Assembly (NCBI GenBank): GCA_046570105.1
Contig: JBKHVI010000030.1
Coordinates: 1 to 32,035, forward strand
Direction: 5' to 3'
Length of the DNA stretch: 32,035 nt
Source of the DNA: Bacteriovoracia bacterium
GTDB taxonomy: Bacteria; Bdellovibrionota; Bacteriovoracia; Bacteriovoracales; Bacteriovoracaceae
Within the stretch, counting starts at the first letter, position 1, and the number at the start of each line of letters is the position of its first letter. Position numbers and translations under genes: made by a program. The notes under the pieces are model-generated. The model did no database searches. It was not told where the DNA came from and saw only the letters and a program-made list of their open reading frames with translations. Below, piece by piece: positions 4,615 through 31,018 of this stretch.

Positions 4615-4637
4615 AAATCAACAAGGAAGAAAAAAAG

Positions 4638-4687: not shown

Positions 4688-4768
4688 AAGAAAACGGGGA
4701 CGAGATCGGAGGCAGTAGGAACTTTAGAGACAGGAATTGCAAAAGAGACAGAAGGAAGGAGGAACTTT

Positions 4769-5149
4769 ATGAATACGAATGAAATAGTTACAGAAGAAGG
4801 AACTAAGAAAAGGAAGGGCAGGAAAAAAAAGGAATCAAATGAAGGAGACCAGGCCAGTAAGGAACAGAACAAATTTTTCATTGATGTTAGCAAGGATGCT
4901 GAGAGCAAGGAAATGCTCTTGTCTCTACTCGCTCAAGTAAACAATAAGACCTATGGCCGCGAAATAATCCTCAAAGACCTCATTCTTGTCGCTCTACCTA
5001 AGCTTTCCTCAAAAGACCTGGAAAAGATTCAAGAGAATAGTCTGTCGGAAATGGAAAAGGTCGAACGCGCTCTGGATGAGCACAACAGAAAGTCAGATGT
5101 GAAACTTACCCTCGGTGAATTTCTGGTAAGAAAACTTGGCATTAATTAA
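4769..5149 (+). CDS. Small DNA-binding protein (possible ribbon-helix-helix relaxosome accessory), 126 aa
   Basis: AGGAGG at 4757-4762 supports ATG 4769; basic disordered N-terminus followed by KFFIDV strand-helix-helix pattern; adjacent to the candidate oriT. Confidence 0.55.
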   Translation: MNTNEIVTEEGTKKRKGRKKKESNEGDQASKEQNKFFIDVSKDAESKEMLLSLLAQVNNKTYGREIILKDLILVALPKLSSKDLEKIQENSLSEMEKVERALDEHNRKSDVKLTLGEFLVRKLGIN

Positions 5150-5162
5150 AAGGAGATCACAA

Positions 5163-5465
5163 ATGTCAGAACAAAAGATTATATTTGGAAGGCTTGGCAA
5201 AAACCCAGAGCTTAAGTACACCAGAAAACAGGAGCCAATCTGTTACTTATCGGTCGCCGAAAATACAAAAGAGAGCGATAAACCCCACTGGCATAAGGTG
5301 ATCGTCTGGGGAAAGCAAGCCGAACAATGCAGCGTCTTCCTAAAAAAAGGTCTGCCCATTTTTGTGCGTGGCCAAAATCACAGTCGGGAATTTACTACGG
5401 AAGCAGGAGAGAAGAAGCAATTGATCGAGCTAAAAGCTGATCTTGTTGGCTTCACCTTTTCCTAA
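5163..5465 (+). CDS. ssb: Single-stranded DNA-binding protein, OB fold only (100 aa)
   Basis: GRLGKNPELKYT...WHKVIVWGKQAE...LKKG..IFVRG; AGGAG precedes ATG 5163. Confidence 0.9.
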   Translation: MSEQKIIFGRLGKNPELKYTRKQEPICYLSVAENTKESDKPHWHKVIVWGKQAEQCSVFLKKGLPIFVRGQNHSREFTTEAGEKKQLIELKADLVGFTFS

Positions 5466-5494
5466 AGACTTAACCAATTTTCCAAGGAGATTGA

Positions 5495-5755
5495 ATGGGT
5501 CGAAATGGACAAATTCTTCATCACATTTCAAATAAAGAATGTTATCCTAAGTCTGGCATTGAGGAGTCCAATTCTCGAAGCCAGCTCTTTAACAATTTAA
5601 TATGGGGTATAGACGAGGTATCTCGCTTCACATCTTATTCTAAGGGTACAATTTACAACTTAGTTTCAGAGGGCGACATACCATACAGAAAGAGACGTGG
5701 AAGGCTCTGGTTCATTCCTAGTGAAGTCTTAAAATGGCTTAAAGGAGAACTATGA
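5495..5755 (+). CDS. Excisionase-like helix-turn-helix protein
   Basis: IDEVSRFTSYSKGTIYNLVSEGDIPYRKRRGRLWF..SEVLKWL is the HTH_17/Xis pattern; overlaps the integrase start. Confidence 0.85.
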   Translation: MGRNGQILHHISNKECYPKSGIEESNSRSQLFNNLIWGIDEVSRFTSYSKGTIYNLVSEGDIPYRKRRGRLWFIPSEVLKWLKGEL

Positions 5756-7002
5756 GTAAGAAAGGTTATGTAAAAGTTAAAGGTGCGGAAGGCATCTACA
5801 AGTATCAGAAGTCTGGAAACTACCTTGCGATGAAAAAAATCAACGGCAAGCAGTACCAGGAGACTTTCAATACTATTTTTGAAGCTAAACAGTGGCGTAA
5901 AACTTTTGATGGGATTTCTTTTGTCCCAACAGCAGAAGCCGCTGAAAGCAAATCAAATTTCTCGACACTTCAAGAAATTTGGGAGGTGATGCAAAAGCAT
6001 CACTTCCCTACTCTCGCCACAAGTACCAAGGACATTTGGCGCCGTCGCTATGAGCTTCTTAAAGACCTTGAACATCTTCCGATGGATAAGATTACGCCAT
6101 CCAAGATTACCTCTTGGGTCAACAAGCATGTCGAACACTTTAAAAGTGAAGAATACCAAGGCTCAGGCCGAGGTCGTGCAGGAAGGTGTAACCTTAACAA
6201 CGAACTTAACATGTTCGTAACCATCTTCAATTGGTACAAGGGAAGTGAGCAGTTTGAAAAAGAAGCGGTTCTTCTGACAAGTCCAGTAAAAACCAAGCAT
6301 CGAAAACTTGGGTTCATCAAGCCTGTTCCTGACAAGAAGAAGCAAATTGATGTTCAAAGTGCTTTTCTATTTTTTGATTATCTTCCTCCGCTCTATCGAG
6401 AGCTGGCCCAGATGCAGTTTTACTGTGCTGGTCGAATTGGCGAGATTTGCGGAATTCAGTGGAGCAATGTTGATCTGAAGAATCGTCGGATGTTGATTAA
6501 GCACTCTTGTACCTTTCATTCAGCGAATAAGACTTTCCTTGAACTCAAACCATTCCCAAAGAACAAAGAAGCAAGACCGGTTTTCATCACGGATGAAATC
6601 CTGGAAATCCTAAAAAAGCGGGAAGCTTTTAGAATTTTGGGAAATGACTTTGTTTTTCATGTGGAGGGAAAGCCGATCAACTACGGCACTGTTCAGATGA
6701 ACTATCGAGATGCACAAAGAAAAAGTGGTATTCCTTATTCAGGAACTCACATCCTGAGGCATGGGATGGCCAAGCTTGCTAGACAAATTGGTGGTGGCCT
6801 TGATGCTGTAATGGCCATGACAGGCCATAAAGATTTGAAACTTGCTGACCACTATTCCAAGTGTGACGAAGACGACCAAAAGCACTTTTCGGAAAAGATT
6901 ATGGATCATATCCGTAAGACAATCCATCCCGAGGATGCTGGTCATGCCAGCTTCGAGAACGTTGTCTCGTTACGAAAGTTCAAAAATGCCACTAATTCCT
7001 GA
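5752..7002 (+). CDS. Tyrosine recombinase / integrase
   Basis: Catalytic set GRIGE (R), HILRH (HxxR), TGH...DHY (H, Y); 416 aa with an N-terminal arm-binding-type region. Confidence 0.95.
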   Translation: MSKKGYVKVKGAEGIYKYQKSGNYLAMKKINGKQYQETFNTIFEAKQWRKTFDGISFVPTAEAAESKSNFSTLQEIWEVMQKHHFPTLATSTKDIWRRRYELLKDLEHLPMDKITPSKITSWVNKHVEHFKSEEYQGSGRGRAGRCNLNNELNMFVTIFNWYKGSEQFEKEAVLLTSPVKTKHRKLGFIKPVPDKKKQIDVQSAFLFFDYLPPLYRELAQMQFYCAGRIGEICGIQWSNVDLKNRRMLIKHSCTFHSANKTFLELKPFPKNKEARPVFITDEILEILKKREAFRILGNDFVFHVEGKPINYGTVQMNYRDAQRKSGIPYSGTHILRHGMAKLARQIGGGLDAVMAMTGHKDLKLADHYSKCDEDDQKHFSEKIMDHIRKTIHPEDAGHASFENVVSLRKFKNATNS

Positions 7003-10367: not shown

Positions 10368-10413
10368 AACTCTCCCCTAGGAAAACGTTAGCATGATCGT
10401 TAGGATAAAAGCT

Positions 10414-10821
10414 ATGTCAGAAAACCGTCGCATTCTCCATTTGATCAAAACCTTAGACGGCGCTACTTGGGCCTTTCATCAGATCCTCGAGCTGCGTCGT
10501 TTAGGCTGGGACGTGCATATCGCTGCCCCGACAAATGTGGGCCGCTTTTTATCTGACATGCAGAAAACCGGCGCGCCCTTGCATGTTCTACCCGTAGAAT
10601 TTCCAGTCAAAACTCCTTGGCTTCTGCCCCGCCACAGTGCAGGACTAAAAAATTTAGTGCAAGAGCTTAATCCAGCTCTCATTCATTCACATTTTGTCAG
10701 CACCACCCACCGCACATTTGCCCTGCCGTTTCACAATAAGCTGACAGCAGAAGAATGCCAGCAAGTGGTGCGAGCACTCAACGATGTACTGGCCACACTT
10801 GCTAAGAAACAAGCCGCCTAA
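10414..10821 (+). pseudogene. Chimeric remnant: GT4 glycosyltransferase N-terminus fused to a DegT/DnrJ aminotransferase C-terminus
   Basis: RILHLI...G.DVHIAAP...PALIHSH (GT4 N-domain) switches at ~10705 to RTFALPFHNKLTAEECQQVVRAL (DegT-type tail). Confidence 0.75.
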
Positions 10822-11747
10822 TTCTTCCCATGTAAAATCAACGCCGCCGCACCAAGAACCGATCCGGTTTCTTGGTTGGTGGACGTTGTTTTCACGCGTG
10901 CTTCATGACGAATACCTTTAAAGGCATAGTGATCAAGCCAATGCTGAACGCGTTTTTCAAAGTCTTCGGAAATTTGTGAAACTCCACCGGCCAAGACGAA
11001 AAGTGATGGATTCAAAACTGCTGCCATCGTTGAAAGTCCAAGCCCTAACCACTCGGCGGTCATCTCCACGACTTGTTCAGCTTTCTTATCACCCTTCTTG
11101 GCCAGATCACTGACTTCTTTAGCTGTCACAGGACGGCCAAAAACTTCATGGGCTGTCATCTCAACACCAGGAGATGAGGCGTAAATCTCTAAATGGCCTT
11201 GGCCTCCGCAAGCACACATGCGGCCCTTGGGTTCAATCACAATATGACCACCCTCACCGGCCTTGCCATTTTCCGAACGAATGATTTGCCCTTCAGCAAA
11301 GATCCCCGTGCCCACGCCTGTTCCCAACGTCACCATTGTAAAATCGCGCACACCTTTGGCGACTCCAAAGAGGGCCTCGCCGATAGCGGCGGTATTAGCA
11401 TCGTTATCAAGTTCGACCGGCAGGCCGACCGCTGCCTCTAATTGATGGGCGAGATCAACTCGACCCCATTTCAAATTCACTGGACTCACGATATGGCCAT
11501 TATTCCAGTTTGCATTGGGAGCTCCCACGCCAATTCCGGCAATGGGAATGTCCGCCAACGAAGTCGTTTTTTTCAAATCAATTAACTCGTGAATATGGCG
11601 CACAAGTTCTTTCAAGTAGTCAGCAAAATCCTGATGCTCTTGAGTTTTAAAAGTCCGTGAGCCACGAACTGAGCCATCGTGCGTGACGAGGGCCAGTTTC
11701 GTGTTAGTGCCACCAATATCAATACCGATTGCGACTCTGGCCTTCAT
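10818..11747 (-). CDS. ROK family sugar kinase (glucokinase/NagK-like)
   Basis: GIDIGGT, GIGVGAP, NDANTAA.GE, TLGTGVG.G, GEGGH, C.CG..G.LE; no HTH domain. Confidence 0.93.
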   Translation of the reverse strand: MKARVAIGIDIGGTNTKLALVTHDGSVRGSRTFKTQEHQDFADYLKELVRHIHELIDLKKTTSLADIPIAGIGVGAPNANWNNGHIVSPVNLKWGRVDLAHQLEAAVGLPVELDNDANTAAIGEALFGVAKGVRDFTMVTLGTGVGTGIFAEGQIIRSENGKAGEGGHIVIEPKGRMCACGGQGHLEIYASSPGVEMTAHEVFGRPVTAKEVSDLAKKGDKKAEQVVEMTAEWLGLGLSTMAAVLNPSLFVLAGGVSQISEDFEKRVQHWLDHYAFKGIRHEARVKTTSTNQETGSVLGAAALILHGKN

Positions 11748-12919
11748 TTCACGCTCCGTGTGCGGTACCAGCCGAAGTAAGCGATATAAATGTATCCAAC
11801 TAATGGAACAAGATAAGACCAGCGAAGGCCCACACTTCCATCAGCAAGTTGCGCTTGAATAAGTGGAAGAATAGCACCGCCGACAATCGCCATACACAAA
11901 AGTGCTGAACCTTTTTTCGTGTAGGCACCGACGCCATCCAATGCTTGCGTGAAGATGGTGGGGAACATAATTGAGTTGCAGTAACCCACTAAGAGCAAGC
12001 AGGCCAAAGCGTTCATGCCTCTTAAGACAAATGAGAGGCCAATCAAAATCACCGCGACGATAGCGTGAATAAAGAGCGTGCGTGCTGGTCCCCATTTTTG
12101 CATATAAGCAGAACCTGCAAAGCGGCCAATCATCGCTCCTGTCCAATAAAGCGAAACATATTTCGCGGCTTCCACTTCTTCCATGCCACCCATTTCAGAG
12201 AGACCCATCAAACTGACGAGAAAACTACCGATCGCCACTTCTGCGCCAACATAAAAGAAAATACCAAGGATACCCAAAATCAATTGGGGGTGATCAGTCA
12301 GCTTGCCACTCGAACCGCTTACTTCATCCTCTTCTTCTTTGATGGCAGGAAGTTCCGTGAAGACGACACCAACAGCTAGAAGAATGAGCATACCTGCAAG
12401 ACCCAAATAAGGACCCACTACTGATTCAGCACCACTGAAGCCAGCGCGGAAAATCAAGAGAGCACCTAACCAAGGAGCCACCGCGGTACCAAGCGAGTTA
12501 AACGCTTGCACCAAAGTCAAACGACGAGAGGCGGTTTCAGGAGATCCGAGACGAGCGATATAAGGATTGGCAGCGACTTGCAAAAGCGCAATACCACCGG
12601 CCAAGACAAAGAGAGCGGTCAAAAATAAATTAAATGAATGAGTCTTCGCGGCAGGTGCAAACATGGCACAACCTACCGCCATGATGACCAGACCAATGAT
12701 GACGCCTTTTTTATAGCCGATTTTTTCCACAATTTTGCCCGACGGTGGCGAGATGACAAAATAGGCCGTGAAAAAGCAAAACTGGACTAAAATAGAGCGG
12801 GTGTAATCCAAGTCGAAAGAGTTTTTTAAATGTGGAACGAGCAAATCGTTCAAGCAGGTAATAAATCCAAAAGCAAAAAACAAAAACGACAGTAGACTCA
12901 AAGCGCGCGTTTGCACCAT
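11744..12919 (-). CDS. Sugar MFS transporter (FucP/GluP/NagP family)
   Basis: LND.LVP.LK, VQFCFF.AYF, LQVAANPY, QAFNSLG, YVGAEV, NSIMFPTIF, MAIVGGA; GGAG favours ATG 12919. Confidence 0.93.
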   Translation of the reverse strand: MVQTRALSLLSFLFFAFGFITCLNDLLVPHLKNSFDLDYTRSILVQFCFFTAYFVISPPSGKIVEKIGYKKGVIIGLVIMAVGCAMFAPAAKTHSFNLFLTALFVLAGGIALLQVAANPYIARLGSPETASRRLTLVQAFNSLGTAVAPWLGALLIFRAGFSGAESVVGPYLGLAGMLILLAVGVVFTELPAIKEEEDEVSGSSGKLTDHPQLILGILGIFFYVGAEVAIGSFLVSLMGLSEMGGMEEVEAAKYVSLYWTGAMIGRFAGSAYMQKWGPARTLFIHAIVAVILIGLSFVLRGMNALACLLLVGYCNSIMFPTIFTQALDGVGAYTKKGSALLCMAIVGGAILPLIQAQLADGSVGLRWSYLVPLVGYIYIAYFGWYRTRSVK

Positions 12920-12989
12920 GGACTTCACTCCAAGTTAAGGGCTAAAATAAGAGCAAATCATATACAGCTGTTACTGAAAGGGCCACGCA

Positions 12990-14186
12990 ATGAAATCCAA
13001 AGTTCTGACCGGTCTTGAGCGTTTACTCACTGATCCCTCCCTTCAAAAGAAGTTCCCAGGGAAAATTGGCTATCTTTGCCACGCTGCATCCGTGACTCCC
13101 GAGATCGAACACGGGCTTTTAGCCTTAAAGCGCGTCTTCGGTGATCGCTTGATTAAGGTTTTCGGCCCCCAACACGGCTTTGTCACCGATGTTCAGGACA
13201 ATATGGTGGAGTCCAAACACACCATCCACCCCTATTTCAAATTACAAGTTTACTCGCTCTACTCTGAAACTCGCATCCCCACCCAAGAGATGCTGGAAGG
13301 TTTGGATCATGTGTTTGTTGATCTACAAGATGTGGGAACGCGCATCTATACCTATATCTACACCATGACTTATATGATGGAGGCCTGCCAAAAGGCCGGT
13401 GTCCAAGTGGTCATTCTCGATCGCCCCAACCCGATTGATGGTGTGACTCTTGAGGGCAATGTCCTAGATATGAAATTTGATTCTTTCGTCGGTCGTCACC
13501 CCATTCCTGTGCGTCACGGACTTACCATGGGCGAAGTCGCACTGATGAACAAAAAATTCTGGACCGCGCCGGATTGCAATCTGCATGTGATCGAGATGAA
13601 GGGCTGGCAGCGCTCTATGAGTTATGAAGACACGAATCTTCCCTGGGTGCTTCCCTCACCCAATCTTGCGACCATTGAAGCCGCCTATACTTTTGTCGGC
13701 ACTGTGCTTTTTGAAGGCACCAATATTTCTGAAGGCCGTGGCTCAACTCGCAGCTTAGAAATTATCGGTCATCCCAAGATTGAAGCCTTCTCGATGCACG
13801 ACAGATTAAAAAAAGTTATGAAAGAAGAAGAACTTTTTGGTTTTGTCCTTCGTCCTTTGGTTTTCTTGCCGACATTTCAAAAACATCAGGGCCTTCCTTG
13901 CGGCGGCTTTCAGATTCACGTAACTGACCGTCAAAAATTTGAACCATGGCGCCTCTGCCAAACACTTTGTCGCGAATTGTATCGCGAACTCGGTGCTGAA
14001 TTTAAATGGAAACAACCTCCCTACGAATATGAATATGATCGCATGCCGATTGATCTCATTAATGGCACCGATAAATTGCGTCTGTGGGTAGAGAAAAATG
14101 GCTCACGTTCAGAGTATGAAAGTATTATGAAAGATGGCTTTGCTGATTATGTGGCAAAAAGAAAGGAAATCTTGATTTACGAATGA
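12990..14186 (+). CDS. namZ: Exo-beta-N-acetylmuramidase NamZ family (DUF1343)
   Basis: FGPQHG, YSLY, DLQDVG.RIYTYIYTM, LDRPNP, RHGLT.GE, WV.PSPN, SEGRG. Confidence 0.9.
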   Translation: MKSKVLTGLERLLTDPSLQKKFPGKIGYLCHAASVTPEIEHGLLALKRVFGDRLIKVFGPQHGFVTDVQDNMVESKHTIHPYFKLQVYSLYSETRIPTQEMLEGLDHVFVDLQDVGTRIYTYIYTMTYMMEACQKAGVQVVILDRPNPIDGVTLEGNVLDMKFDSFVGRHPIPVRHGLTMGEVALMNKKFWTAPDCNLHVIEMKGWQRSMSYEDTNLPWVLPSPNLATIEAAYTFVGTVLFEGTNISEGRGSTRSLEIIGHPKIEAFSMHDRLKKVMKEEELFGFVLRPLVFLPTFQKHQGLPCGGFQIHVTDRQKFEPWRLCQTLCRELYRELGAEFKWKQPPYEYEYDRMPIDLINGTDKLRLWVEKNGSRSEYESIMKDGFADYVAKRKEILIYE

Positions 14187-14231
14187 GTGCAAGGATGTTC
14201 TCCTAAAGTCTATTAACTTTAAGGAGACAGC

Positions 14232-15605
14232 ATGTTGCAACAACTTGAAAAGCTCACGGGCGATTTCGTGGGTCTTGTTTGGGGTGTGCCCCTCGTCGTT
14301 TTACTCGTCGGATCTGGCATTATCTTCACCATTTATTTTGGTTTTCCTCAACTGCGTTTCTTCAAACACGCCATCGATATTATTTTCGGCAAATACGACA
14401 AAGCGGAGGACAAAGGTGAAATCTCTCACTTTCAAGCACTCTGCGCTGCCCTTTCTGCAACAGTAGGACTTGGGAATATCGCCGGTGTGGCAGTGGCCGT
14501 TTCTTTGGGAGGTCCAGGTGCGGTTTTCTGGCTATGGGTCGCCGGCTTCATTGGCATGTGTACCAAGTTTACTGAAGTCACACTGTCACTTTCCTATCGC
14601 GATGTGATGCCAGATGGCACTGTTCACGGTGGACCGATGTTTGTGATTAAAAACGCTCTCTCAAAAAACTTCTATCCGATCGCATGGATCTACGCTTTCT
14701 TCACCATTCTCTCATCATTTGGTGCAGGTAATATGTTCCAGGCCAATCAAATGGCCTCTGTCATGAAGGCCTCGGCCGGTATTCCTGAATGGCTCTCGGG
14801 CATCATCTTCTGTATCGGAGCTTTCTTAATTCTGATTGGTGGTATCAAGCGTATTGGTAAAGTGACGGAAAAATTAGTTCCTGCCATGGTGGGACTCTAT
14901 ATCCTTGGTGCCCTCGCCATTATTTTTGTCCACATTGACCGCGTCCCAGAAATGTTCTCTATGATTTTCTCTAGCGCCTTTGCTGGTACCGCCGCTGTTG
15001 GTGGTTTTGCCGGTGCCGCCTTTAAAGATGTGATCGTCATGGGTATTCGTCGTGCGACCTTCTCAAACGAAGCAGGCATGGGTTCTTCGGCGATGGCCCA
15101 CTCAGCGGCCAAATCCACTCCGATTCAAGAAGGTATTGTCGCCCTACTCGAGCCCTTTATCGACACCATCGTCGTTTGCACTATCACTGCTATTGCATTG
15201 TTACTCACTGGAGTATGGAGCATGGAAGGTGTTCCGGCCGGTTCAGAAATGACGGCCCAAGCGTTTGAAAGTGTCATGGGGCCAACTGGCCGCTGGATCG
15301 TAACCGCAACTGTAACACTCTTTGCTTTCTCGACCATGATTTCTTGGAGCTACTATGGTGAGCAAGGTATTACCTTTATCTTTGGTGATAAATGGATTCC
15401 AGCTTATCGCTATGTCTTTATTGCTTTTATTTTCATCGGCGCCATCGCGCAGTTGAATATCGTTTTGAATCTCTCTGATGCGGTTTATGGTCTCTTGGCA
15501 CTCCCAAACATTATGGCGTGCTACATCCTCTTACCTAAAGTCAAAGAACAGCTCGATGACTACAAGGCGAAACTTAAATCCGGAGCGATCGCTCCAACGA
15601 AGTAA
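14232..15605 (+). CDS. Alanine/glycine:cation symporter (AgcS/AlsT family)
   Basis: SHFQAL..ALSATVGLGNIAGVA.A...GGPGAVFW, FSNEAGMGS, EPFIDT.VVC, FAFST.ISWSYYG. Confidence 0.95.
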   Translation: MLQQLEKLTGDFVGLVWGVPLVVLLVGSGIIFTIYFGFPQLRFFKHAIDIIFGKYDKAEDKGEISHFQALCAALSATVGLGNIAGVAVAVSLGGPGAVFWLWVAGFIGMCTKFTEVTLSLSYRDVMPDGTVHGGPMFVIKNALSKNFYPIAWIYAFFTILSSFGAGNMFQANQMASVMKASAGIPEWLSGIIFCIGAFLILIGGIKRIGKVTEKLVPAMVGLYILGALAIIFVHIDRVPEMFSMIFSSAFAGTAAVGGFAGAAFKDVIVMGIRRATFSNEAGMGSSAMAHSAAKSTPIQEGIVALLEPFIDTIVVCTITAIALLLTGVWSMEGVPAGSEMTAQAFESVMGPTGRWIVTATVTLFAFSTMISWSYYGEQGITFIFGDKWIPAYRYVFIAFIFIGAIAQLNIVLNLSDAVYGLLALPNIMACYILLPKVKEQLDDYKAKLKSGAIAPTK

Positions 15606-15611: not shown

Positions 15612-15640
15612 AAGGCCACTCTTTTGGGTGGCCTTTTTTT
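15612..15640 (+). terminator. Intrinsic terminator between convergent genes
   Basis: AAGGCCACTC-TTTT-GGGTGGCCTT hairpin followed by a T-run. Confidence 0.85.
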
Positions 15641-16427
15641 AGATCGCACATATCCGTTGTGAGTGCTGAGCGATTCCCACCTTGGTGGAATTTAGTTCGT
15701 TGACAGCATAAACGAATTTGGAAAAACCTGAACGCTGCAAGTTAAACGTACGAATCAAATCCACAATCCAGTACGGTACCCGTGTCTCACACTTTAATTC
15801 CAAAATGACATTGGTTTCTGGCTCAAAGTAATTGGGATTATCATAAAACTGCATATCTTTGGAGCGATCGAACGTATAAGTGTCGCGAGCAACAAATCGC
15901 ATATCGCGATCAAAAGTCACTCGGGCGTAATCATCAATCGTTGAAAAATAGGCCTTGCGACGGTATTGCGTAAAAACCACTGGACGTGCCTGATTGATCA
16001 AGGCCTGATAGGCAAAATCGTAAGCATAATCCTTTTTAACCAGCTCATCTTTTGCTGGTAATAAAATATTATTCTCTAACGCCTCCAGCCACTCAGTGGT
16101 CGTTATTTTGGCACGCGTTTTTTTAACAAATCCTCCGGTCTTCTTTTTTATCTCTAAAAAATAGAGCGGGTTTTCTTCATCGCCATAAGTGCGTACGCGC
16201 ATATTAAAACGGCCATCATGGCCAACTAAGGCGTTCTGAAAAAACTGATAATGGGGAGTATCAAGATAGAGGTTATTGATGGAATAAAAATTATCAGGAG
16301 AGATTTTTGAGTAGTGATCCATCTCACAGAAGCCAGAGATATAATCTGAAATCTCAGCGACCATCGCCCAAGGAATATGGTACTTGAGTTCGTAGCGCTC
16401 ATAAAGCAGGGCCGTCTTAAGAGTCAT
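15639..16427 (-). CDS. VTC-domain polyphosphate polymerase-like protein (TTM/CYTH fold)
   Basis: RYELKY, I.NLYLDT, RVRTY, FLEIKKK, QYRRKAY, RVTFD, ILELK, FSK motifs. Confidence 0.9.
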   Translation of the reverse strand: MTLKTALLYERYELKYHIPWAMVAEISDYISGFCEMDHYSKISPDNFYSINNLYLDTPHYQFFQNALVGHDGRFNMRVRTYGDEENPLYFLEIKKKTGGFVKKTRAKITTTEWLEALENNILLPAKDELVKKDYAYDFAYQALINQARPVVFTQYRRKAYFSTIDDYARVTFDRDMRFVARDTYTFDRSKDMQFYDNPNYFEPETNVILELKCETRVPYWIVDLIRTFNLQRSGFSKFVYAVNELNSTKVGIAQHSQRICAI

Positions 16428-17578
16428 AAAGTATTGGTGAGTAGATTTTTATAATTAAAGATCTCACCGCTCTCTTTCGCGATTGAAAAGAAATTGGCGT
16501 ACACTTCCTTCAGCATACTCACCTGCTCTTCATTACGCTTAAACTCAAAGCTCATCACCTCAGAATAATCATCAAGGGCCAAGTTCTTGATCGCCTGCTC
16601 TTTCATTTTATTGACTTCCATCCGTTGCCCACGCGAGCGAGACGCGAGCAACTCAATATTACGTAGAGTTTGACTCACGATCATCTGATGCTCTTGGCGA
16701 TGATCTTTGATTTCTTTCATCAGCTTGAATTTCTTCTCAGTAAAGTCATTCATCTTCATGAGTTTGGCCGTATCATCACCCAAGAAGGGTAACGTCACCC
16801 CTACGGTAACCGCATGGTCTACTTCGCGATCACCATCTGATATCCGGCGCTGGTATTCAACATGTCCTAAAATGGCATTTTCTGAATTAAGGCGGATGTC
16901 TTTATCATATTGATTGACCAAGAGTTGCTGTTCTAGGACTTTTTCAGTCAGAGTTTTGCGACGCTCCTGTGAGATGCGCTTCAACATTTTACTCATCTGG
17001 GCCAAATCAATCATCCCAGCAAAGCTTATTTTCTTCATATCAAGTTTGTACTCAGTTGCGAGTGACTCACTTAAGATGGAAAGCGTTTCATTGGATTCAT
17101 CTAAGTTAGAGCGCACAATTTTGCGTTCATCTTCCATCTTCACAAAACGTATAAGAGAATTGTCTCGACGCTTAAGCGTCTGAAGGGTCTTTTCTAGCTT
17201 CGCCAAATGAGTAATCAGGCCTTGACGACGATCATTTTCTAATTTGTAGCTTACGATCTTTAAATAGAAGTCAGCGATTCGCTCGCCTTGGTAATACTTA
17301 AGAAAAAGTCGGTTTGACTTTTGAATCTCCGAAAAGCCCTTTTTCTTCGTGCCATACTGCCAAACATTATCAAAATTTACTCTTACTCGTAGCGAGTCTG
17401 CCCCAATATCTGACTCGCGCCAACCTAGCTCGGTGCTTTTTATGATGCTCGGACGATAGTTTTCCGTCCCTTGCATCTCAACTTTAAGTTGATGAGGAAG
17501 CTCTATCTCCTTCAAGCTTTGAGCACTTACCAACAACGGCAAGCATATAGCGATCAGGAAACTAGTTTTGCTGCTCAT
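16424..17578 (-). CDS. Divergent TolC-like outer-membrane channel
   Basis: Signal peptide; two repeats of beta-hairpin plus long helices (LRVRVNF...; HAVTVGVTLPFLG); follows a HlyD-like gene. Confidence 0.65.
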   Translation of the reverse strand: MSSKTSFLIAICLPLLVSAQSLKEIELPHQLKVEMQGTENYRPSIIKSTELGWRESDIGADSLRVRVNFDNVWQYGTKKKGFSEIQKSNRLFLKYYQGERIADFYLKIVSYKLENDRRQGLITHLAKLEKTLQTLKRRDNSLIRFVKMEDERKIVRSNLDESNETLSILSESLATEYKLDMKKISFAGMIDLAQMSKMLKRISQERRKTLTEKVLEQQLLVNQYDKDIRLNSENAILGHVEYQRRISDGDREVDHAVTVGVTLPFLGDDTAKLMKMNDFTEKKFKLMKEIKDHRQEHQMIVSQTLRNIELLASRSRGQRMEVNKMKEQAIKNLALDDYSEVMSFEFKRNEEQVSMLKEVYANFFSIAKESGEIFNYKNLLTNTL

Positions 17579-19274
17579 AGATCACTCCGTAGGAAGGATC
17601 ATCCCCATGATCAAATGTGACTATGAGCTTTTGACCAGCATCATGACAGTGAACTCCCTCTGGCTTCTCTTTTTTGTATTCGATTAATTTCTCAATCTTT
17701 TGCTGGCGCAAACGATAGATTCCACCCGTTTGCTCATCTTTACTGGCGGGCGCAGCGGCAATAATAAGCTCTTTTCCACAGAGAGAGAGATCAGAAATAC
17801 CTAACGCTCTCCCCTGGCCGTTTAATAATTTAATCTGGTGAGCGAGTTTAATGTCGGTAATTTCATTTTTTTCAAATAATTGATTCAGGCCTTCCAGACG
17901 GAAAATGAGCGCCTCACTTTTTTCATTTAAGCGTGTACGCAAGCCGAGCAGGAGGGAGTTGCCTTCCACCGCCATCCCTTCGATATCGATTTCCAACTCA
18001 CCATTTTTTTGAAGATAACTCAACTCAGAGCGAGTTGCGTTCTTTTTCAAAAAATCTTTCAGCAAATTATAAAGAGAAACACTGCCGGTCTTCTCAAAAT
18101 TGATTCCATCACGTTTGAGTCGAACGAGCTGCTGACGATCCCCTTTCCCAGAACTCTTCTTGCTGCCTACACTTAAAGAAGACACCACATAGATCGTCTC
18201 GTCAGCGCCAAGCGAGATGGCCTCGAAATCAGCAAGACCTTTGAGCTCTTTGATTTTTGTATCAGAGACATCCTCGCCATTGGCATTCACCAACACCACT
18301 TGAGTTTTCTTTTTAGTCGTTCTTCCGTCACTCACAACCAGGTATTTATTGATTTTGGGCAAGAATGTTACACCTGAGCCTTCAAATTTCTTTTGGCCCG
18401 GAGCTTTCAGCAGGAATCTTTTTGTTTCTAAGTAGCTGCCTAGGCCCGAAAGACCAAGTTTCTGGCCTTTTTTCTTGTCATCACTGGCATAGGCCTGATT
18501 AAAAAAACCACGGCTCGCTTCGTATTTAGCGATATAGACTTTCTCACCTAAGATCAGGTTATTGGTTTCAGGGATTTCAATCATGACCTCTCGCCCCCAG
18601 ACTGGACGAGTGGGATCTTTCAGCAGTCTTTCTGGGAAAGGCACGATGCTTGAGCCAAAGCTGATCACTTTACCAATGACTGAGCGCTCTTTGCCCGAAG
18701 CTGGATGGCTTACCAAAACTTCAGTTCCTATGCTCACTTCTCCCACTACGCTCTCATGTAAATAACCGCGAATAGTGGTGGGAGTCGACTCCAAGAGAGT
18801 CATAATGGGTAAGTGTGGTTGAGCGTTTTCTCCCTCTTTCTTTAGGATCGACTCGACTTTTCCATCAAATTTAGAAAAAATGAACAGTTCACTCTTTTCT
18901 TTTTCTAAAATGGCGAGCTGCTTTTTGAGTCCTTCGATATTAGAATGCTCTACTTTGTCGGTATTTACGATCGTTGAGAATATTTCTTTCTGCTCAAGCA
19001 AATAATCTAATTCAGCGGCAATTCGGTTAAGCTCTAGCTCCATCTGCGGGTTCTCTAGTTCTAAAAGAAGATCGCCCGTTTTTACTGTTTGCCCAGAAAT
19101 GACATGGATCTTTTTAACTCTCGCCGAAGTACTCGAAGTTATTTCTTGTGAACGTAATCCAACAATCCCAACAAAGTCGAGACGCTCTTTCTGAGTTAAT
19201 TGCAATGTCACAAGAACAAGAGCACAAAGGCCCCAAACTAATGCAAAAATTTTATTTCTACCGATTCGTTTCAT
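17562..19274 (-). CDS. HlyD/MFP adaptor fused to a C-terminal DUF3616-like beta-propeller
   Basis: N-terminal TM; VKKIHV.SGQ.VK.GDLL.EL and SKFDGKV lipoyl halves around a coiled coil; C-terminal DFEAI..YVVSS.S, IDIEGMA, LLGLR, GISDL, KPEG repeats. Confidence 0.8.
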   Translation of the reverse strand: MKRIGRNKIFALVWGLCALVLVTLQLTQKERLDFVGIVGLRSQEITSSTSARVKKIHVISGQTVKTGDLLLELENPQMELELNRIAAELDYLLEQKEIFSTIVNTDKVEHSNIEGLKKQLAILEKEKSELFIFSKFDGKVESILKKEGENAQPHLPIMTLLESTPTTIRGYLHESVVGEVSIGTEVLVSHPASGKERSVIGKVISFGSSIVPFPERLLKDPTRPVWGREVMIEIPETNNLILGEKVYIAKYEASRGFFNQAYASDDKKKGQKLGLSGLGSYLETKRFLLKAPGQKKFEGSGVTFLPKINKYLVVSDGRTTKKKTQVVLVNANGEDVSDTKIKELKGLADFEAISLGADETIYVVSSLSVGSKKSSGKGDRQQLVRLKRDGINFEKTGSVSLYNLLKDFLKKNATRSELSYLQKNGELEIDIEGMAVEGNSLLLGLRTRLNEKSEALIFRLEGLNQLFEKNEITDIKLAHQIKLLNGQGRALGISDLSLCGKELIIAAAPASKDEQTGGIYRLRQQKIEKLIEYKKEKPEGVHCHDAGQKLIVTFDHGDDPSYGVIYEQQN

Positions 19275-19282
19275 ATAACACC

Positions 19283-19969
19283 TTAGATTTCGACGGTGGC
19301 TTCCTGTAGCAAGAAAGTCACTCCCGTTACATCATTAAGACCTTTGAGCGATTCGATAAACACTTGGTAGTTCTTGTCGTCTTTGAGTTTTACTTGGTAG
19401 GCAAAGTCTAAGCGCTGTCCCTGCGATGTTTCACGCAATGTAACGAGGGCAAAATGTCGGCAATGATCCATCAAAACAGAGCGCAAAGTGCTCTCTACAT
19501 TTTTGTCGGCCGAACTCACTGAAAAACGCAAGAGTCCATCGAAACGATTTTCACTTGTCGTGGGAAAGTAATACAAGAAAAGCGCCACTGAACAAAAGGC
19601 CAATGAACCAACAGCAGCTATTTTAAATTGGTAAACACCACAGGCAATTCCTAAAGTGAGTGCCGCGAAAATAAAAATAATATCTTTAGGGTCTTTGATT
19701 GATGATCGGAAACGAATGATGGCGAGAGCGCCCATCATACCAAAACCACGAGCGACATTATCGCCAATCGCTTGCATAGCAATACAAGTGACTAAGCTTC
19801 CGAGTATCAGTGCTTGAATAAAGCTGCGTGAATATGAAAGTCCTTGAAAACTTTTTTGATAAGTCTTAGCGATGAGAACTGACAGTACAAAAGTGAGCAC
19901 CACCGAATAGAGAATGGAGAGCAGCGTAGGATCCTTGACGTTGGCCTGAATTTGCAGAATATCGAGCAT
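19283..19969 (-). CDS. DUF4956 family membrane protein (MgtC-like TM region plus ACT-like C-terminus)
   Basis: IGDNVARGFGMMGALAIIRFRS.IKDPKDI.FIF..L..G.ACG signature; start re-called to ATG 19969. Confidence 0.92.
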   Translation of the reverse strand: MLDILQIQANVKDPTLLSILYSVVLTFVLSVLIAKTYQKSFQGLSYSRSFIQALILGSLVTCIAMQAIGDNVARGFGMMGALAIIRFRSSIKDPKDIIFIFAALTLGIACGVYQFKIAAVGSLAFCSVALFLYYFPTTSENRFDGLLRFSVSSADKNVESTLRSVLMDHCRHFALVTLRETSQGQRLDFAYQVKLKDDKNYQVFIESLKGLNDVTGVTFLLQEATVEI

Positions 19970-23238: not shown

Positions 23239-23612
23239 GATTTCTTGCAGGCCAAGGCTTCTTCCATTTTCATTCTCTTTACTTCGCGAGGCAAAGTCGT
23301 CAGCACTTTACCAAGACGGGAACGAGTGGAGATCGTTTTCTGTTTACCATCAAGGCGGTAAGTCATCATGTCTCTTTCATCAGAGCGCTGATGATTGAGT
23401 TTATTAAAATTATGATATTGCTTTAAAAACCGATCAAGAATGTGAGCATTACAACTCGATCGCTTCATGGAGAAATTCATTCGATGAGATGTTAAATACA
23501 AACTTTGCTCATCCCAAGTCACTTGGTAATTGATGCGAGTCGATTGAACTTTAAGGCTAATCGCCCATACCGGAGTGGTCATTAAACACAGAACAACAAT
23601 TTTTATAAACAT
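23235..23612 (-). CDS. Hypothetical secreted protein
   Basis: Signal peptide (…PVWA); overlaps both neighbours in the operon. Confidence 0.7.
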   Translation of the reverse strand: MFIKIVVLCLMTTPVWAISLKVQSTRINYQVTWDEQSLYLTSHRMNFSMKRSSCNAHILDRFLKQYHNFNKLNHQRSDERDMMTYRLDGKQKTISTRSRLGKVLTTLPREVKRMKMEEALACKKS

Positions 23613-25528
23613 AGATGAAACCTAACTGTGGGTTCTGTTTGTATCAGTTCTTCGCAAGCCGTGGAGAGAGGCAGTCCTTTATGGATGGCTTCTCGCAATG
23701 AGCGAGTGAGCCCTGAAGAATGAGAGTCAATGCTGATCGGATTTACAATAGAGGCCCCTTCGTACTCAAGTCCATCAACTGACTTATCTAGCAGGGCACA
23801 TGAAAAAATACCGCTTGGATTGCTCGAGGCCCTAAACGCTAAGAGGTCGGCCATGTCTTCTTCGCTTCTCAACTGATCACCCGGGTGAACCCAAGGATAC
23901 TCGCCTTCTGGTAAAGGTTCAGCTTCTTCCCAACGATTAATGCACGCTCGATCTTTTTGAAACTGCTTCATCGACTCACCACTTAGAGGATCTTTGGCGG
24001 CGGTAATACTGAATGCATGACCTAATTCATGCGCCAAAATATCCATTCCCAAGGCGGGGTGAGTGCATGAAAAATGCGACACCATAATATTATCTTTATC
24101 GGCAACAGCATCACTTGGCATTTCTTCTGCATCAAAGTGCTTCTGCTCTACAAAGGCATCCCAAATGGTATAACTCATCGTCGATGGACAAACGTTGCCA
24201 CTAAAAGCATCTGCCGACATATCGTAAATACTTAACTTGTCAGTTGTATATACTAACAATGAATAAACATCACTCAAGTCGTTGATTGATTCTTCTTTTG
24301 TCGCTTCTTCGTCAATCTCTTCTAAAAAATCATCAATGCCGGTAGCACCTTTCGGTGGCGACTTGAGAACCACATTCAATTGCTCATCAAAATACTTCTG
24401 CACTTTTTGACGAGAAGTTTCACTGTACTTACCAAGGGCCCGACTAATAAATGCATCTTTTACTTTGGGGATATTTTCACGAATAAAGCTGGCATCCGCA
24501 TCGAGTAATGTGAGTTCGGCCATCATGGAGCGACAGTAGCTGAGTTGTTTCTCGACCAGCCTAGGCTCGTTAAGACTTTTCTCCATCGAATCCATCAGCT
24601 TTGACCAATTGAGCTCATTTACATATCGCCCTAAGGCCTCTCGGCATGTATCAGAAGCACAGCTTTTAAGATTCTTGTCCGGAAATATCCGCTCACGGCT
24701 TTCAACCGATGCTAGCGTGTAATCAATCGTGCTTAATGACATGCTAATTTCACAGGCAAGGACTTCATTCATTTCGCCACTCATCGCAAGTGCTAGATGC
24801 TCTTTAACTTGGGTGAGACTATCTGCAAGAAGAGTCGGGAATTTGATCAGCGCCTGATCAAAATCAGCTTTAATTAATTCCGCTCTGCGCTTGAGTTCAA
24901 CTTTTAATTCATCCAGAGTATAAACATCCATATAGCAAGCGGTAGTGAAGTGGGCGGTAGGCTTCTTGCTATATTCGGGTATCATCGCCTGAAGCAGCGA
25001 CTTAGTTTCTGCTGACAAAAAATCTGTTTCAGAAAGTGTCACTTTCACACGCTCATCCAGAGGACGCTCTTTATCAATATCAACCGTTAAATGTTGTGAA
25101 AGAGTATAGCCAAAAATGGTCTCGAGCTTATCCTCATCAAGTCCTTCGAGGCTCAGCTTCTCTCCCTTCGCTAAGCGCTCACGCCAGGCCTTAAGAATCA
25201 GATTCCCTTCCTTGCTACGTCGCTCAATAATTTTTTTGAGTTTGTCTTCATACGGGAGAATCTTTGCGTATTGCTCCTGATCAACGATGCCGACGATCGT
25301 TTCATCATTGAGTTCAGCAGTCGGAGTTGTCTTGGGATCACCACATAAATCCCGGGCGCAAATAAGGGCAAGCTTCTCTTTACTGCCTAGCTCATCACAA
25401 GACACTGGCACCTTGGTTTCAATCCCTCGCTCATTAAATGAATTGAGTAGATTTACTAGGTGATTTCCTGAGGCCAGGGCAGGAGTCATAAAAAACAAAA
25501 GAGGCCATAAATGTAAGGCGAATTTCAT
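23603..25528 (-). CDS. Secreted zinc metallopeptidase, divergent M13/gluzincin-like
   Basis: Signal peptide; ILAHELGHAF (HExxH) with downstream EEDMAD (ExxAD third ligand); Cys-rich. Confidence 0.7.
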   Translation of the reverse strand: MKFALHLWPLLFFMTPALASGNHLVNLLNSFNERGIETKVPVSCDELGSKEKLALICARDLCGDPKTTPTAELNDETIVGIVDQEQYAKILPYEDKLKKIIERRSKEGNLILKAWRERLAKGEKLSLEGLDEDKLETIFGYTLSQHLTVDIDKERPLDERVKVTLSETDFLSAETKSLLQAMIPEYSKKPTAHFTTACYMDVYTLDELKVELKRRAELIKADFDQALIKFPTLLADSLTQVKEHLALAMSGEMNEVLACEISMSLSTIDYTLASVESRERIFPDKNLKSCASDTCREALGRYVNELNWSKLMDSMEKSLNEPRLVEKQLSYCRSMMAELTLLDADASFIRENIPKVKDAFISRALGKYSETSRQKVQKYFDEQLNVVLKSPPKGATGIDDFLEEIDEEATKEESINDLSDVYSLLVYTTDKLSIYDMSADAFSGNVCPSTMSYTIWDAFVEQKHFDAEEMPSDAVADKDNIMVSHFSCTHPALGMDILAHELGHAFSITAAKDPLSGESMKQFQKDRACINRWEEAEPLPEGEYPWVHPGDQLRSEEDMADLLAFRASSNPSGIFSCALLDKSVDGLEYEGASIVNPISIDSHSSGLTRSLREAIHKGLPLSTACEELIQTEPTVRFHLCL

Positions 25529-28492: not shown

Positions 28493-28681
28493 TTGCGCTC
28501 CAAGGGAGAGATGTATTTTTTCGATGGCCAACCATAGCCCCTGCCCACTTAAGACGTCCTTAAATTGAAAATTTTACGAGTAGGCACAGACATCTGAACA
28601 CTTAGGATCCTAACCTCTTGGTTTTCCTATGGGAAAAGCTTGCTTTGTTTCCACAAGAGCGACTCAAGCTATAATCGATGG

Positions 28682-29908
28682 ATGAATAATCTTAAAATTA
28701 CCCTTACGACACTCCTCTTTTCCGCAACTGCTTTTGCCATGGAAAACTGTACTGACCCCACCTTGTCTTCATCAGCGACTGCTGAAGAATTAGTAGAACA
28801 AAACTGTGAAGTCATCGACCAGATGAGATCTTGTGCTGAAAAACCCATTGATCCAGATGCCGCCAAAAAACGCATTGAATATCTCTTGGGAAAAGTTGAA
28901 GCGGGTGAGCCAACCAAATATTGGCAAAGCGCTAAAAAAATCTATCCACCCTACAATCAGTTTTATGACCTCGATCAAAGCCCCGGGCAGAATCCTCCAA
29001 AAGATATTTTGGATTGGTTGAGTGATGCTAAATACTCTGGCGCAGAAGTAGATCAAGCAGCGCTCAAAGAATCCATTATTAAAAAATATGTCGAATATGC
29101 CAAAGAGTACGATTGCACACCCGTGCTGAAGCACGGCTACACTCATATTTCATATCCACAAAAAGTGAAGGCCAACAGCTACCAAGAGCTGCAACGTCAG
29201 GTTGATAAACCCGATATCAAAGCGGCTAAAGATGAGTACTTCAAAAATTATAATGCTAAATCGAGTGAAACGTTAACCACCTGCAATCCTGCTCGCTATA
29301 GTAATAGCGCTTGGCAAGATGTGGCACAGATTTATCCTCCTTGCTCTGGAAATGTATCGGGACTTTTTAAAGACAACGTCTCTGACGTCTCTACACTGGA
29401 TCAAGAAATAGTGGGATCAGAAACCAACGAAGTCTCTCAATGTATCCAAAGCGCTCTCGCCAAAGGGGCAAAGATTCATCACGTCTCAATTAGTAGCTCG
29501 GCTTCTGCTCTCAATAATACTGGTGAAGCAGCTAAAAAGTTTTGTCGTAAAGGCTTTCTGGCGCTCTCTCAGGCCAGAGCTGAAAGTGCCCGCGATAAAA
29601 TCCTTCCCACCATTTTCCTCAAGGCCGGCCAAGAAAATTATGACTACACTTCAAAAATTCAAATGGACTTCAAAGGCAGTAATGGCGACGGCACTTCAGG
29701 CGCCTGTCCCTATACGATCGTAGACGGTAAAGAGGTGCTCAAAGAACAGTACCGCACTCCTAAGGGTAAAAAAGAGCTTGATGCTTATAAATACATCAAC
29801 GTTCACGTGACCTTTGAAGACAGCATGAAGCGTATTGATACCAAAAAGAGCTACTACGCGCCTTTCTATAGCTGTAAAAGAATTTATTTTGAATGTGCTC
29901 CGAAATAA
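28682..29908 (+). CDS. Secreted Cys-rich protein with a divergent OmpA-like C-terminal domain
   Basis: Signal peptide (…ATAFA); V.I.SSAS...LALSQARAES resembles the OmpA_C LS..RA motif. Confidence 0.6.
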   Translation: MNNLKITLTTLLFSATAFAMENCTDPTLSSSATAEELVEQNCEVIDQMRSCAEKPIDPDAAKKRIEYLLGKVEAGEPTKYWQSAKKIYPPYNQFYDLDQSPGQNPPKDILDWLSDAKYSGAEVDQAALKESIIKKYVEYAKEYDCTPVLKHGYTHISYPQKVKANSYQELQRQVDKPDIKAAKDEYFKNYNAKSSETLTTCNPARYSNSAWQDVAQIYPPCSGNVSGLFKDNVSDVSTLDQEIVGSETNEVSQCIQSALAKGAKIHHVSISSSASALNNTGEAAKKFCRKGFLALSQARAESARDKILPTIFLKAGQENYDYTSKIQMDFKGSNGDGTSGACPYTIVDGKEVLKEQYRTPKGKKELDAYKYINVHVTFEDSMKRIDTKKSYYAPFYSCKRIYFECAPK

Positions 29909-30291: not shown

Positions 30292-30657
30292 TTACGCCTG
30301 CTTCTTCTCTTGAACTCGCTCAACATTGTTAAGTCTTTTGTTTAATTCTTCAATCTGTTTACTAAGCTCTCTTATCTCAATTTGCGAATCTTTTCTCAAA
30401 TAGGGAGCGTCACCAAGTAAATACATTTCAAGCAGCCTGTCATTAATGATCTTTTGATAACCTACGCCCAACTCTTCAGCTTCACGTTTAGCGGCATCAA
30501 GCACCCTTAGGTCAAGCCTAATAGTGATTTTCTCTCTATCTTCTAAACGCCCAACCTTATCTGCCAAATCATAAGACAAAATGTCTTCATCACCGATTTG
30601 GTCTTTTGGAATGCGTTCAAGTGCTGCTTTAAATTTCGCTCTTTTCGGATTAACCAT
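30292..30657 (-). CDS. BrnA/CopG-like antitoxin (RHH) with a C-terminal coiled coil
   Basis: EKITIRLD.RVL...K.EA...GVGYQ.IIN..L is the BrnA-type signature. Confidence 0.8.
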   Translation of the reverse strand: MVNPKRAKFKAALERIPKDQIGDEDILSYDLADKVGRLEDREKITIRLDLRVLDAAKREAEELGVGYQKIINDRLLEMYLLGDAPYLRKDSQIEIRELSKQIEELNKRLNNVERVQEKKQA

Positions 30658-30943: not shown

Positions 30944-31018
30944 CCCGACATCTCTTTCCTCATTTCTACGTGGATTTTGCTCTTTTTGAGTTTCTTAACC
31001 AAAATTCACCTCGCCTTC

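Follow-up and report, generated by a model that had tools for sequence, protein, structure and literature searches.

A conserved gene cassette places a VTC-type enzyme and a DUF4956 membrane protein beside an adaptor and a TolC-fold protein, and may export polyphosphate without a classical pump

What takes the place of the pump when a periplasmic adaptor and a TolC-like protein are encoded together without one? To our knowledge, every characterised adaptor-TolC assembly uses a pump from a few transporter families. This question is raised by a 32,035-nucleotide (nt) stretch of DNA from a Bacteriovoracia bacterium (GCA_046570105.1, contig JBKHVI010000030.1), referred to here as the window, whose coordinates are used throughout. 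Four genes within 4.3 kb of its minus strand encode, from 5' to 3', a DUF4956 membrane protein (19969-19283, 228 amino acids (aa) from its ATG), an adaptor fused to a beta-propeller (19274-17562, 570 aa), a TolC-like protein (17578-16424, 384 aa) and an enzyme with a VTC domain (16427-15639, 262 aa). All four were taken from the open reading frame (ORF) list and assigned with Pfam, except for the TolC-like protein, which was assigned from its AlphaFold2 model. We found that this cassette is real, dedicated and, on the features tested, outside the known tripartite exporter classes. We infer its function, and most plausibly it would work like the yeast VTC complex, which makes polyphosphate (polyP).

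An earlier note on this DNA had described four co-oriented, tightly coupled genes, and the ORF coordinates bear this out, the successive junctions being a gap of 8 nt and overlaps of 17 and 4 nt. An alternative upstream TTG start for the DUF4956 gene, placed at 20020 by the ORF finder, is absent from its homologues in the alignment. The same note had stated that the operon lacks an ABC ATPase and an RND or MFS pump. This holds, as no ABC, RND or MFS pump gene adjoins the operon among the window proteins searched with Pfam, and the flanking genes are unrelated transporters, one for short-chain fatty acids, in opposite orientation, and a Na/alanine symporter that converges on the cassette. The nearest MFS gene, of sugar type, lies ~2.7 kb from the cassette with two other genes between. 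A broken or frameshifted pump gene was considered and rejected, as all four ORFs are intact and abutting. The GC content of the cassette is 0.42-0.43 vs 0.446 genome-wide.

We found that the cassette recurs across many genomes, and the arrangement is therefore not a chance adjacency of four genes. An adaptor search matched 56 of the 401 genomes of the phylum. The loci taken comprised 40 of 60 listed places, chosen by score and spread, plus 3 and 13 others, with two duplicates and a second locus of the host's own genome removed. Adaptor and VTC occurred together at 44 sampled loci, and 40 of these were complete four-gene sets in which adaptor and VTC flank the TolC-like gene, although at one of the 40 (L077) that gene is similar only weakly. 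The other four comprised one reordered locus, two ended by contig ends and one without a TolC-like gene, while of the ten adaptor-matched loci without a VTC, seven were propellers standing alone, two were ordinary adaptors and one fell at a contig end. A VTC search at E up to 1e-40 matched 47 of the same 401 genomes, and in 47 of 47 the adaptor shared the contig and strand of the VTC at a distance of 42-1797 nt, a result that describes one VTC subtype because the profile was built from cassette VTCs. In the Desulfoluna phylum, 6 of 301 genomes matched the VTC, and the five new loci there contained an adaptor (5/5), CotH (5/5), a TolC-like gene (4/5) and DUF4956 (4/5). Among the best 80 of 485 VTC relatives in metagenomes, the 20 loci with at least 4.5 kb on both sides contained an adaptor in 20 cases, a TolC-like gene in 19, DUF4956 in 19 within 5.5 kb, an RND gene in none and an ABC gene in one.

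Pooling 67 long loci gave 58 clusters at 95% VTC identity and 38 clusters at 70%. DUF4956 and the adaptor were present in all 58, the TolC-like gene in 53, CotH in 14, RND in 0, ABC in 6 and MFS in 6; at 70% identity the corresponding counts were 38, 38, 33, 9, 0, 4 and 2, the pump counts resting on home-built profiles from few sequences that distant members could escape. The ABC and MFS genes stand at varying positions and strands. The earlier note had proposed to survey neighbourhoods of VTC, DUF4956, HlyD-type adaptor and TolC-like genes without an ABC or RND partner, and these data support a conserved linkage of the four genes and the absence of a conserved classical pump in the cassette. 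Gene order varies and flanks change among the loci. The four gene trees, built from 40 loci, share 14-17 of 19-21 supported splits with 0-2 conflicting, a largely congruent pattern that shared descent alone would also give.

The enzyme belongs to the VTC family (Pfam PF09359, E 4e-46, 158 bits against a cut-off of 23, residues 11-244 of 262), and its hydropathy reveals no signal or transmembrane (TM) segment. No SPX domain was matched by Pfam in any of the four cassette proteins. A profile of 30 cassette VTC sequences, searched against PDB sequences, matched ten (best E 4e-12), all of them Vtc2, Vtc3 or Vtc4; up to E 1, neither a CYTH cyclase nor a triphosphatase appeared. Residues K15, R77, R79, K94, Y155, R157, E210, S236 and K237 correspond to Vtc4 K200, R264, R266, K281, Y359, R361, E426, S457 and K458, respectively, with eight equivalents taken from the HMMER alignment and that of K200 matched by eye from the motif. 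All nine are present and invariant in 30 of 30 cassette VTC homologues. In the available parts of a yeast study, K200, R264, R266, K281, R361, K458, S457 and Y359 of Vtc4 are required for polyP synthesis, E426 is a metal ligand, and K458 is the sole difference separating active Vtc4 from inactive Vtc2/3 (10.1101/2023.01.27.525886). The residues suggest that the active site is intact and of the Vtc4 type, so that an active tunnel enzyme would be expected, with the identity of its product beyond the reach of residues alone.

The membrane protein matches DUF4956 (Pfam PF16316, E 1e-12) and, weakly, MgtC (E 0.008 in Pfam and E 0.002 in NCBIfam). It shares with MgtC/SapB a small multi-helix layout and a cytoplasmic C-terminal domain, whereas its scores fall far below both curated MgtC/SapB cut-offs (17 bits vs 31.4 in Pfam and 17.4 vs 255 in NCBIfam). 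A DUF4956 profile compared with one MgtC-like protein gave no significant match (E 0.47), and an Atlas search with DUF4956 returned only DUF4956 clusters. Hydropathy identifies four clear hydrophobic segments and a glycine-rich fifth (72-85, mean hydropathy 1.66), and the protein probably contains five TM helices, at about 17-35, 50-68, 72-85, 97-113 and 114-132, with its C-terminus inside. The mean K+R content of the loops alternates as this topology predicts (2.4 and 4.0 vs 0.0 and 0.1). The available part of a Streptococcus intermedius study describes the DUF4956 homologue there as MgtC-like with an ACT domain (10.1101/2024.04.20.589940), and by analogy a cytoplasmic ACT-type C-terminal domain may be present here. 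Conserved residues in the alignment are K39, R48, D70, R74, R86, R88, K92, D93, K/R95 and D96, of which R86, R88, D93 and D96 are invariant and R74 occurs in 27 of 28 homologues. This pattern of basic residues would suit an anion path, in the manner of the basic TM1 residues that serve one in yeast VTC, as far as the available text of that work goes (PMC9911596).

The 570-aa protein consists of a periplasmic adaptor part (residues 1-253, 18516..19274, minus strand; AlphaFold2 model, Foldseek and Pfam), a linker with a predicted local distance difference test score (pLDDT) <50 (residues 254-278, 18441..18515, minus strand) and a beta-propeller delimited by structural alignment (residues about 279-570, 17562..18440, minus strand). 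Pfam places HlyD_3 and biotinyl-lipoyl above cut-off and also reports DUF3616 and DUF6929, while the MdtN/EmrA/RND_mfp matches in NCBIfam are all below cut-offs. In the AlphaFold2 model the adaptor part contains a TM anchor (4-27), a lipoyl domain, a short alpha-hairpin (76-128) and a beta-barrel, the last carrying W226-G227-R228, invariant in the alignment. Foldseek matched it to MacA/EmrA/ZneB (E 5e-11 to 6e-10), and residues 28-253 align structurally with EmrA 4tko at Z 14.2. The membrane-proximal domain of adaptors contacts periplasmic parts of RND and MacB pumps. No such domain was found in the AlphaFold2 model or the structural alignment, and this adaptor would therefore fit a small membrane partner. 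Hairpin regions differ by lineage, at about 56, 65-73 and 138-147 residues, and could possibly track the width of the periplasm.

The propeller is most similar to YjiK 3qqz (Z 21.4, root-mean-square deviation (rmsd) 2.8, 222 aligned, by VIA-align), followed by glutaminyl cyclase (Z 18.9), calcium-activated nucleotidase (Z 17.4) and beta-propeller phytase (Z 14.4). It conserves E298, D316, D349, E351, D430, E432, R446, E539 and D555, an acidic cluster with a basic residue, and a propeller profile found nothing among PDB sequences. The model is consistent with a YjiK/SdiA-regulated-like fold with a central acidic cluster, and the fold alone is no proof of function. The propeller is present in 48 of the 58 non-redundant loci, which makes it dispensable at some, and it also occurs as a stand-alone gene. 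The linker contains an A-x-A motif that resembles a signal peptide in the alignment, and stand-alone propellers with hydrophobic N-termini occur; the motif may be a signal-peptide remnant.

The 384-aa protein has no Pfam match and one irrelevant NCBIfam match at E 0.03. Its AlphaFold2 single-chain model, made from a 10-sequence alignment, has a pLDDT of 83, and Foldseek returned 39 matches at E up to 0.001 with TolC, OprM and relatives on top (E 8e-9). Against E. coli TolC the model gives Z 20.4 (361 residues aligned, rmsd 4.2 Å), compared with 8.3 for the first unrelated fold, while identity in the structural alignment is 6-8%. The match starts at residue 20, behind a hydrophobic N-terminal signal (about 1-19). 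The four beta-strands are amphipathic, with hydrophobic and polar residues alternating across 30 homologues, and the lumen-side position R66 is K or R in 93% of these. Two homologues pass the Pfam OEP cut-off. The single-chain model thus points to a divergent TolC-fold outer-membrane factor. Single-sequence searches with the TolC-like protein yielded just 8 proteins in one case and 7 in another, and hits in 4 genomes among 61 related ones, counts that understate the family because its members had to be recovered by gene position. The four family assignments of the earlier note agree with these results: a VTC-domain enzyme, a DUF4956 membrane protein, a membrane-fusion adaptor and a TolC-like channel, the last at the level of the protomer.

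Natural variants separate the two halves of the cassette. Locus L065 contains CotH, DUF4956, an adaptor with a 7-residue hairpin region and VTC, and locus L140 contains CotH, DUF4956, an adaptor of TM segment and beta-barrel only and VTC; neither has a TolC-like gene, and CotH is directly upstream in both. The hairpin region measures 55-147 residues in every measured TolC-bearing locus. Since the hairpin is lost together with the TolC-like gene, our data indicate that the hairpin serves the TolC-like protein and that the beta-barrel goes with DUF4956. The outer-membrane half is optional in some loci, and the core therefore comprises VTC, DUF4956 and the adaptor beta-barrel.

We give roughly even chances to a four-part envelope machine in which polyP, once synthesised in the cytoplasm, would thread through DUF4956 and leave by the duct, with the membrane potential as its main drive. 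First, the soluble VTC enzyme, whose active site appears intact, would build polyP from ATP in the cytoplasm. The enzyme would then dock on a DUF4956 oligomer, in which R74 and R86/R88, at the two ends of the glycine-rich helix, could form the anion path through the inner membrane; this docking and the pore role of DUF4956 would be the weakest links of the proposal. The inside-negative potential would pull the polyanion out, while synthesis would feed the chain and add less, as physics and the yeast precedent suggest. Lastly, the adaptor beta-barrel would sit on DUF4956 and its hairpin would meet the TolC-fold protein, an assembly suggested by the modelled folds, and the chain would diffuse to the surface. 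The optional propeller might bind calcium or trim the chain. Secreted kinases and surface proteins are often encoded nearby, and a likely use of the chain would be to serve these as phosphate donor or mineral scaffold. The PiT transporter, phosphatases and phosphodiesterase found at some loci would give this proposal a fitting phosphate context.

The earlier note had proposed polymerisation from ATP as the driving force, and this part of its proposal is doubtful. ATP-to-polyP transfer exchanges one phosphoanhydride for another, with a gain mainly from the ATP/ADP ratio of about 6 kJ/mol per tenfold, and one negative charge moving outward across 150 mV yields about 14 kJ/mol. In polarity, the periplasm corresponds to the vacuole lumen. 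In the sections available from two yeast reports, the isolated Vtc4 domain is slow and vacuolar polyP depends on a proton gradient and a positive lumen (PMC9911596, PMC10657179). Because the phosphoanhydride swap gains little and the yeast complex needs a proton gradient, membrane potential is likelier to be the main drive.

Several observations weigh against this proposed machine. A DUF4956 profile matched no solved structure meaningfully (best E 0.89) and no Vtc chain, Vtc1 included, at E up to 10. In the enzyme, the position of Vtc4 R253, which is K or R in 25 of 30 homologues, is Ala66, and the loop by which Vtc4 docks on its pore has four fewer residues here. Triphosphate binding is a general property of the tunnel residues, and tunnel enzymes of other kinds act as hydrolases. 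The TolC-like family has a median identity of 15%, a net charge near zero (median +1) that gives no anion bias, and conserved acids beside the bases on its lumen strands. The hairpin here has 56 residues vs about 143 in other lineages, which makes it questionable whether the duct spans the periplasm. Two loci (L138 and L101) keep the hairpin where no TolC-like gene was detected, and at two (L077 and L163) its position is taken by no more than a divergent gene of comparable size, which we counted against the joint loss of hairpin and TolC-like gene. As many as 28 of the 47 VTC-bearing genomes belong to one family and are kin rather than independent. The host genome also carries RND genes that immediately follow a TolC-type gene (C8:11204-15583, C25:12730-17508 and C45:3-3322), and we saw no adaptor gene next to them. 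Finally, in the portion available of their report, the S. intermedius authors consider that polyP of the VTC homologue may stay cytoplasmic, and their deletions had little effect on Pel or aggregation (10.1101/2024.04.20.589940).

A fuller version of the same proposal, which we hold at somewhat less than even odds, is that the VTC synthase feeds an MgtC-like channel and that the potential-driven chain reaches the surface through the adaptor-TolC duct as a phosphoryl source for CotH-type or other secreted kinases, which lack ATP there. We consider it unlikely, but the best of the alternatives, that the cassette supplies these kinases outside the cytoplasm with a small phosphoryl donor (short polyP, tripolyphosphate or a nucleotide) rather than bulk polymer, the duct deciding between periplasm and surface. 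CotH stands beside 14 of the 58 loci, all five new loci of the Desulfoluna phylum and both variants without hairpin and TolC-like gene, while two further apparently secreted families with kinase-like motifs, one with a lead to Fam20C-like kinases (0.91), flank 16 more loci. The trio of CotH, VTC and DUF4956 occurs in single-membrane bacteria as well, according to the available parts of two reports (10.1101/768473, 10.1101/2024.04.20.589940). Against a small donor, no kinase-like neighbour was detected at 28 of the 58 loci, the host genome (88% complete) has no Pfam match to CotH, and the kinase identity of the two extra families finds no relevant Pfam, PDB or profile-profile match.

The cassette might instead work inward, with the TolC-like tube admitting polyP or organic phosphates, the propeller hydrolysing them, DUF4956 admitting phosphate and the VTC enzyme trapping it as polyP or splitting tripolyphosphate. 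We regard this as improbable. The propeller does resemble calcium-activated nucleotidase and beta-propeller phytase and has the conserved acidic cluster, and phosphatases and a PiT transporter lie near some loci, namely a PiT/PHO4 phosphate transporter between the TolC-like gene and VTC in four metagenome loci that are probably one lineage (L145:5311-6918, L151, L160 and L168), and PhoX, purple acid phosphatase and type I phosphodiesterase at one locus each. MgtC is linked to phosphate metabolism in the text available of one study (10.1101/2024.04.20.589940). Set against this, the propeller is missing in 10 of the 58 loci, the equivalent of K458, needed for polyP synthesis by Vtc4, is kept, adaptor and TolC assemblies are, as far as is known, exporters, and anion import opposes the membrane potential.

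Slightly less probable again is that the adaptor and TolC-like protein serve an ABC or RND pump encoded elsewhere, with VTC and DUF4956 forming a module of their own, cytoplasmic or regulatory, linked to them by shared regulation only. The host genome contains eight ordinary TolC-type genes and five RND pumps, and this explanation stays alive because the pumps on C8, C25 and C45 have no adjacent adaptor that we saw; however, these pumps have TolC-type genes of their own. VTC and DUF4956 also occur without a duct, including at a second, distinct host-genome locus (C19; L013:2102-12300), where the VTC has 202-205 aa and no adaptor or TolC-like gene was seen. This locus stands in a run of genes that includes two of the UbiA family and one for an MMPL transporter, and that also encodes a 505-aa protein bearing kinase-like motifs and a CYTH-like protein whose N-terminus is hydrophobic. 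A pump in trans is disfavoured by the adaptor's lack of a membrane-proximal domain, by the joint travel of the four genes under changing order with congruent trees, and by the beta-barrel, which stays beside DUF4956 after loss of the hairpin and TolC-like gene. The weakest alternative, that the tunnel enzyme makes or removes another phosphorylated molecule (e.g., a triphosphatase or cyclase product) exported by the same duct, draws on the catalytic diversity of tunnel metalloenzymes, on an N-terminal R-x-E-x-K in place of the R-x-T-x-K of Vtc4 and on a literature search for a bacterial VTC-domain polyphosphate polymerase that gave no bacterial enzyme by title, yet it is very improbable given a profile whose matches to solved structures, at E up to 1, are confined to VTC subunits and include neither CYTH cyclases nor triphosphatases.

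Compared with the yeast VTC complex (Vtc4/Vtc3 or Vtc2/Vtc1; PDB 3g3q, 7ytj, 8i6v), the cassette has in common the Vtc4-type tunnel domain with all nine residues and, as proposed, a coupling of synthesis to translocation, with the chain crossing the membrane by a basic channel to the positive side. The cassette enzyme differs in being a free 262-aa protein without an SPX or TM domain, its membrane partner is MgtC-like and, compared by sequence, has no detectable resemblance to the VTC membrane domains with their three helices, and an adaptor and TolC-fold duct are added. Because neither a three-helix membrane domain nor SPX was found, we do not place it in the VTC complex class. AcrAB-TolC, MacAB-TolC, EmrAB-TolC and HlyBD-TolC likewise combine an adaptor and a TolC-fold factor, adjacent and co-oriented, and the present adaptor, which has a TM anchor and lacks a membrane-proximal domain, is nearest to the EmrA type. 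In contrast to these tripartite and type I systems, the cassette has DUF4956 and the enzyme in place of an RND, ABC or MFS pump, its adaptor is often fused to a propeller, and its outer-membrane factor is 6-8% identical to TolC. In synthase-dependent exopolysaccharide secretion, especially that of alginate by Alg8/Alg44/AlgE, synthesis and export of a polymer likewise form a single step, and the periplasmic portion of Alg44 is membrane-fusion-like; there, however, a glycosyltransferase doubles as the channel and a porin provides the exit, whereas the cassette has a soluble tunnel metalloenzyme and a TolC-fold exit.

Parts of the cassette appear elsewhere. In the sections available, cotH, a polyphosphate polymerase and DUF4956 are named as accessory genes of Gram-positive pel clusters (10.1101/768473), and S. 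intermedius SIR_1592-1594 is a CotH, VTC and DUF4956 trio whose function is described as unknown and which, in the accessible part of their report, its authors did not find outside pel operons (10.1101/2024.04.20.589940). This pel-tied trio has the same VTC and DUF4956 core with CotH, and no adaptor or outer-membrane factor is described for it in that part. CotH flanks many of our cassettes, whereas no pel genes were seen near cassette loci in our neighbour scans. We found no publication on a four-gene VTC, DUF4956, adaptor and TolC-like system in a search that left most subscription journals outside, nor any that linked DUF4956 with VTC by name, joined Bdellovibrio polyphosphate with TolC and VTC, treated polyphosphate as phosphoryl donor for CotH or extracellular kinases, or covered export of the Neisseria polyphosphate pseudo-capsule.

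The cassette conserves an arrangement in which a pump is swapped for an enzyme and a small MgtC-like protein. If polyP export is correct, it would name a bacterial export route for polyP, give DUF4956 a function, provide bacteria with a counterpart of yeast VTC whose membrane parts are different and offer a candidate answer to how kinases outside the cytoplasm are supplied with a phosphoryl donor. The host genome carries PPK1, so cytoplasmic polyP is already provided for. With four genes in 4.3 kb and natural stripped-down variants, the cassette is directly testable.

The neighbour scan that gave the PiT transporter and phosphatases covered 89 of 143 listed flanking ORFs, with L138:9309-10730 added by hand and one re-cut reference. 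It also showed recurrent lamin-tail proteins and a single S1/P1 nuclease. An unnamed, apparently secreted family of 500-1300 aa with atypical-kinase-like motifs by eye often adjoins the cassette (L012:611-4558, L057, L058, L060, L075, L083) and has members in the host genome (C17:4532-7858, C19, C48:13018-14790), the C48 copy being followed by a gene that is CYTH-like by eye. Next to VTC at other loci (L051-L056, L063, L066, L076) is an unnamed family of 450-520 aa with a hydrophobic N-terminus and an invariant Q-D-R-x-G-N ... D-N-D, for which the Atlas gave the lead to Fam20C-like kinases; a small protein with a weak tyrosine-phosphatase match is usually encoded after it. At L046, L049, L068 and L076 a block recurs beside the cassette with a PPDK N-terminal (ATP-grasp) protein and a beta-lactamase-fold protein, apparently secreted.

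In the window itself, a GC-rich hairpin (15612..15635, plus strand) lies 3 nt past the VTC stop between convergent genes, with its T-run on the plus strand, and may terminate the minus-strand cassette transcript too. A promoter scan gave fewer sites than shuffled sequence. The left end (80-7002, plus strand) is part of an integrative conjugative element with CagX-like, TrbI/VirB10-like and TraD/TrwB coupling proteins, SSB and a tyrosine integrase, and the window contains no tRNA. We rejected the cassette as part of this mobile element, from which 8.6 kb and several housekeeping genes separate it. An ORF of 142 aa at 10393-10821 (plus strand) matches the N-terminal part only of a GT4 glycosyltransferase and is a fragment by appearance. 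Positions 10818-15605 contain a ROK kinase and the MFS gene on the minus strand, divergent from a NamZ exo-muramidase and the Na/alanine symporter, probably a peptidoglycan-sugar recycling cluster. At the other end (30292-32035, minus strand) are a CopG-antitoxin-like gene with a small upstream partner and, at the contig end, an rve-type transposase. Two large, apparently secreted proteins without a Pfam match are encoded at 28640-29908 (plus strand) and 23603-25528 (minus strand), the latter with an H-E-x-x-H motif.

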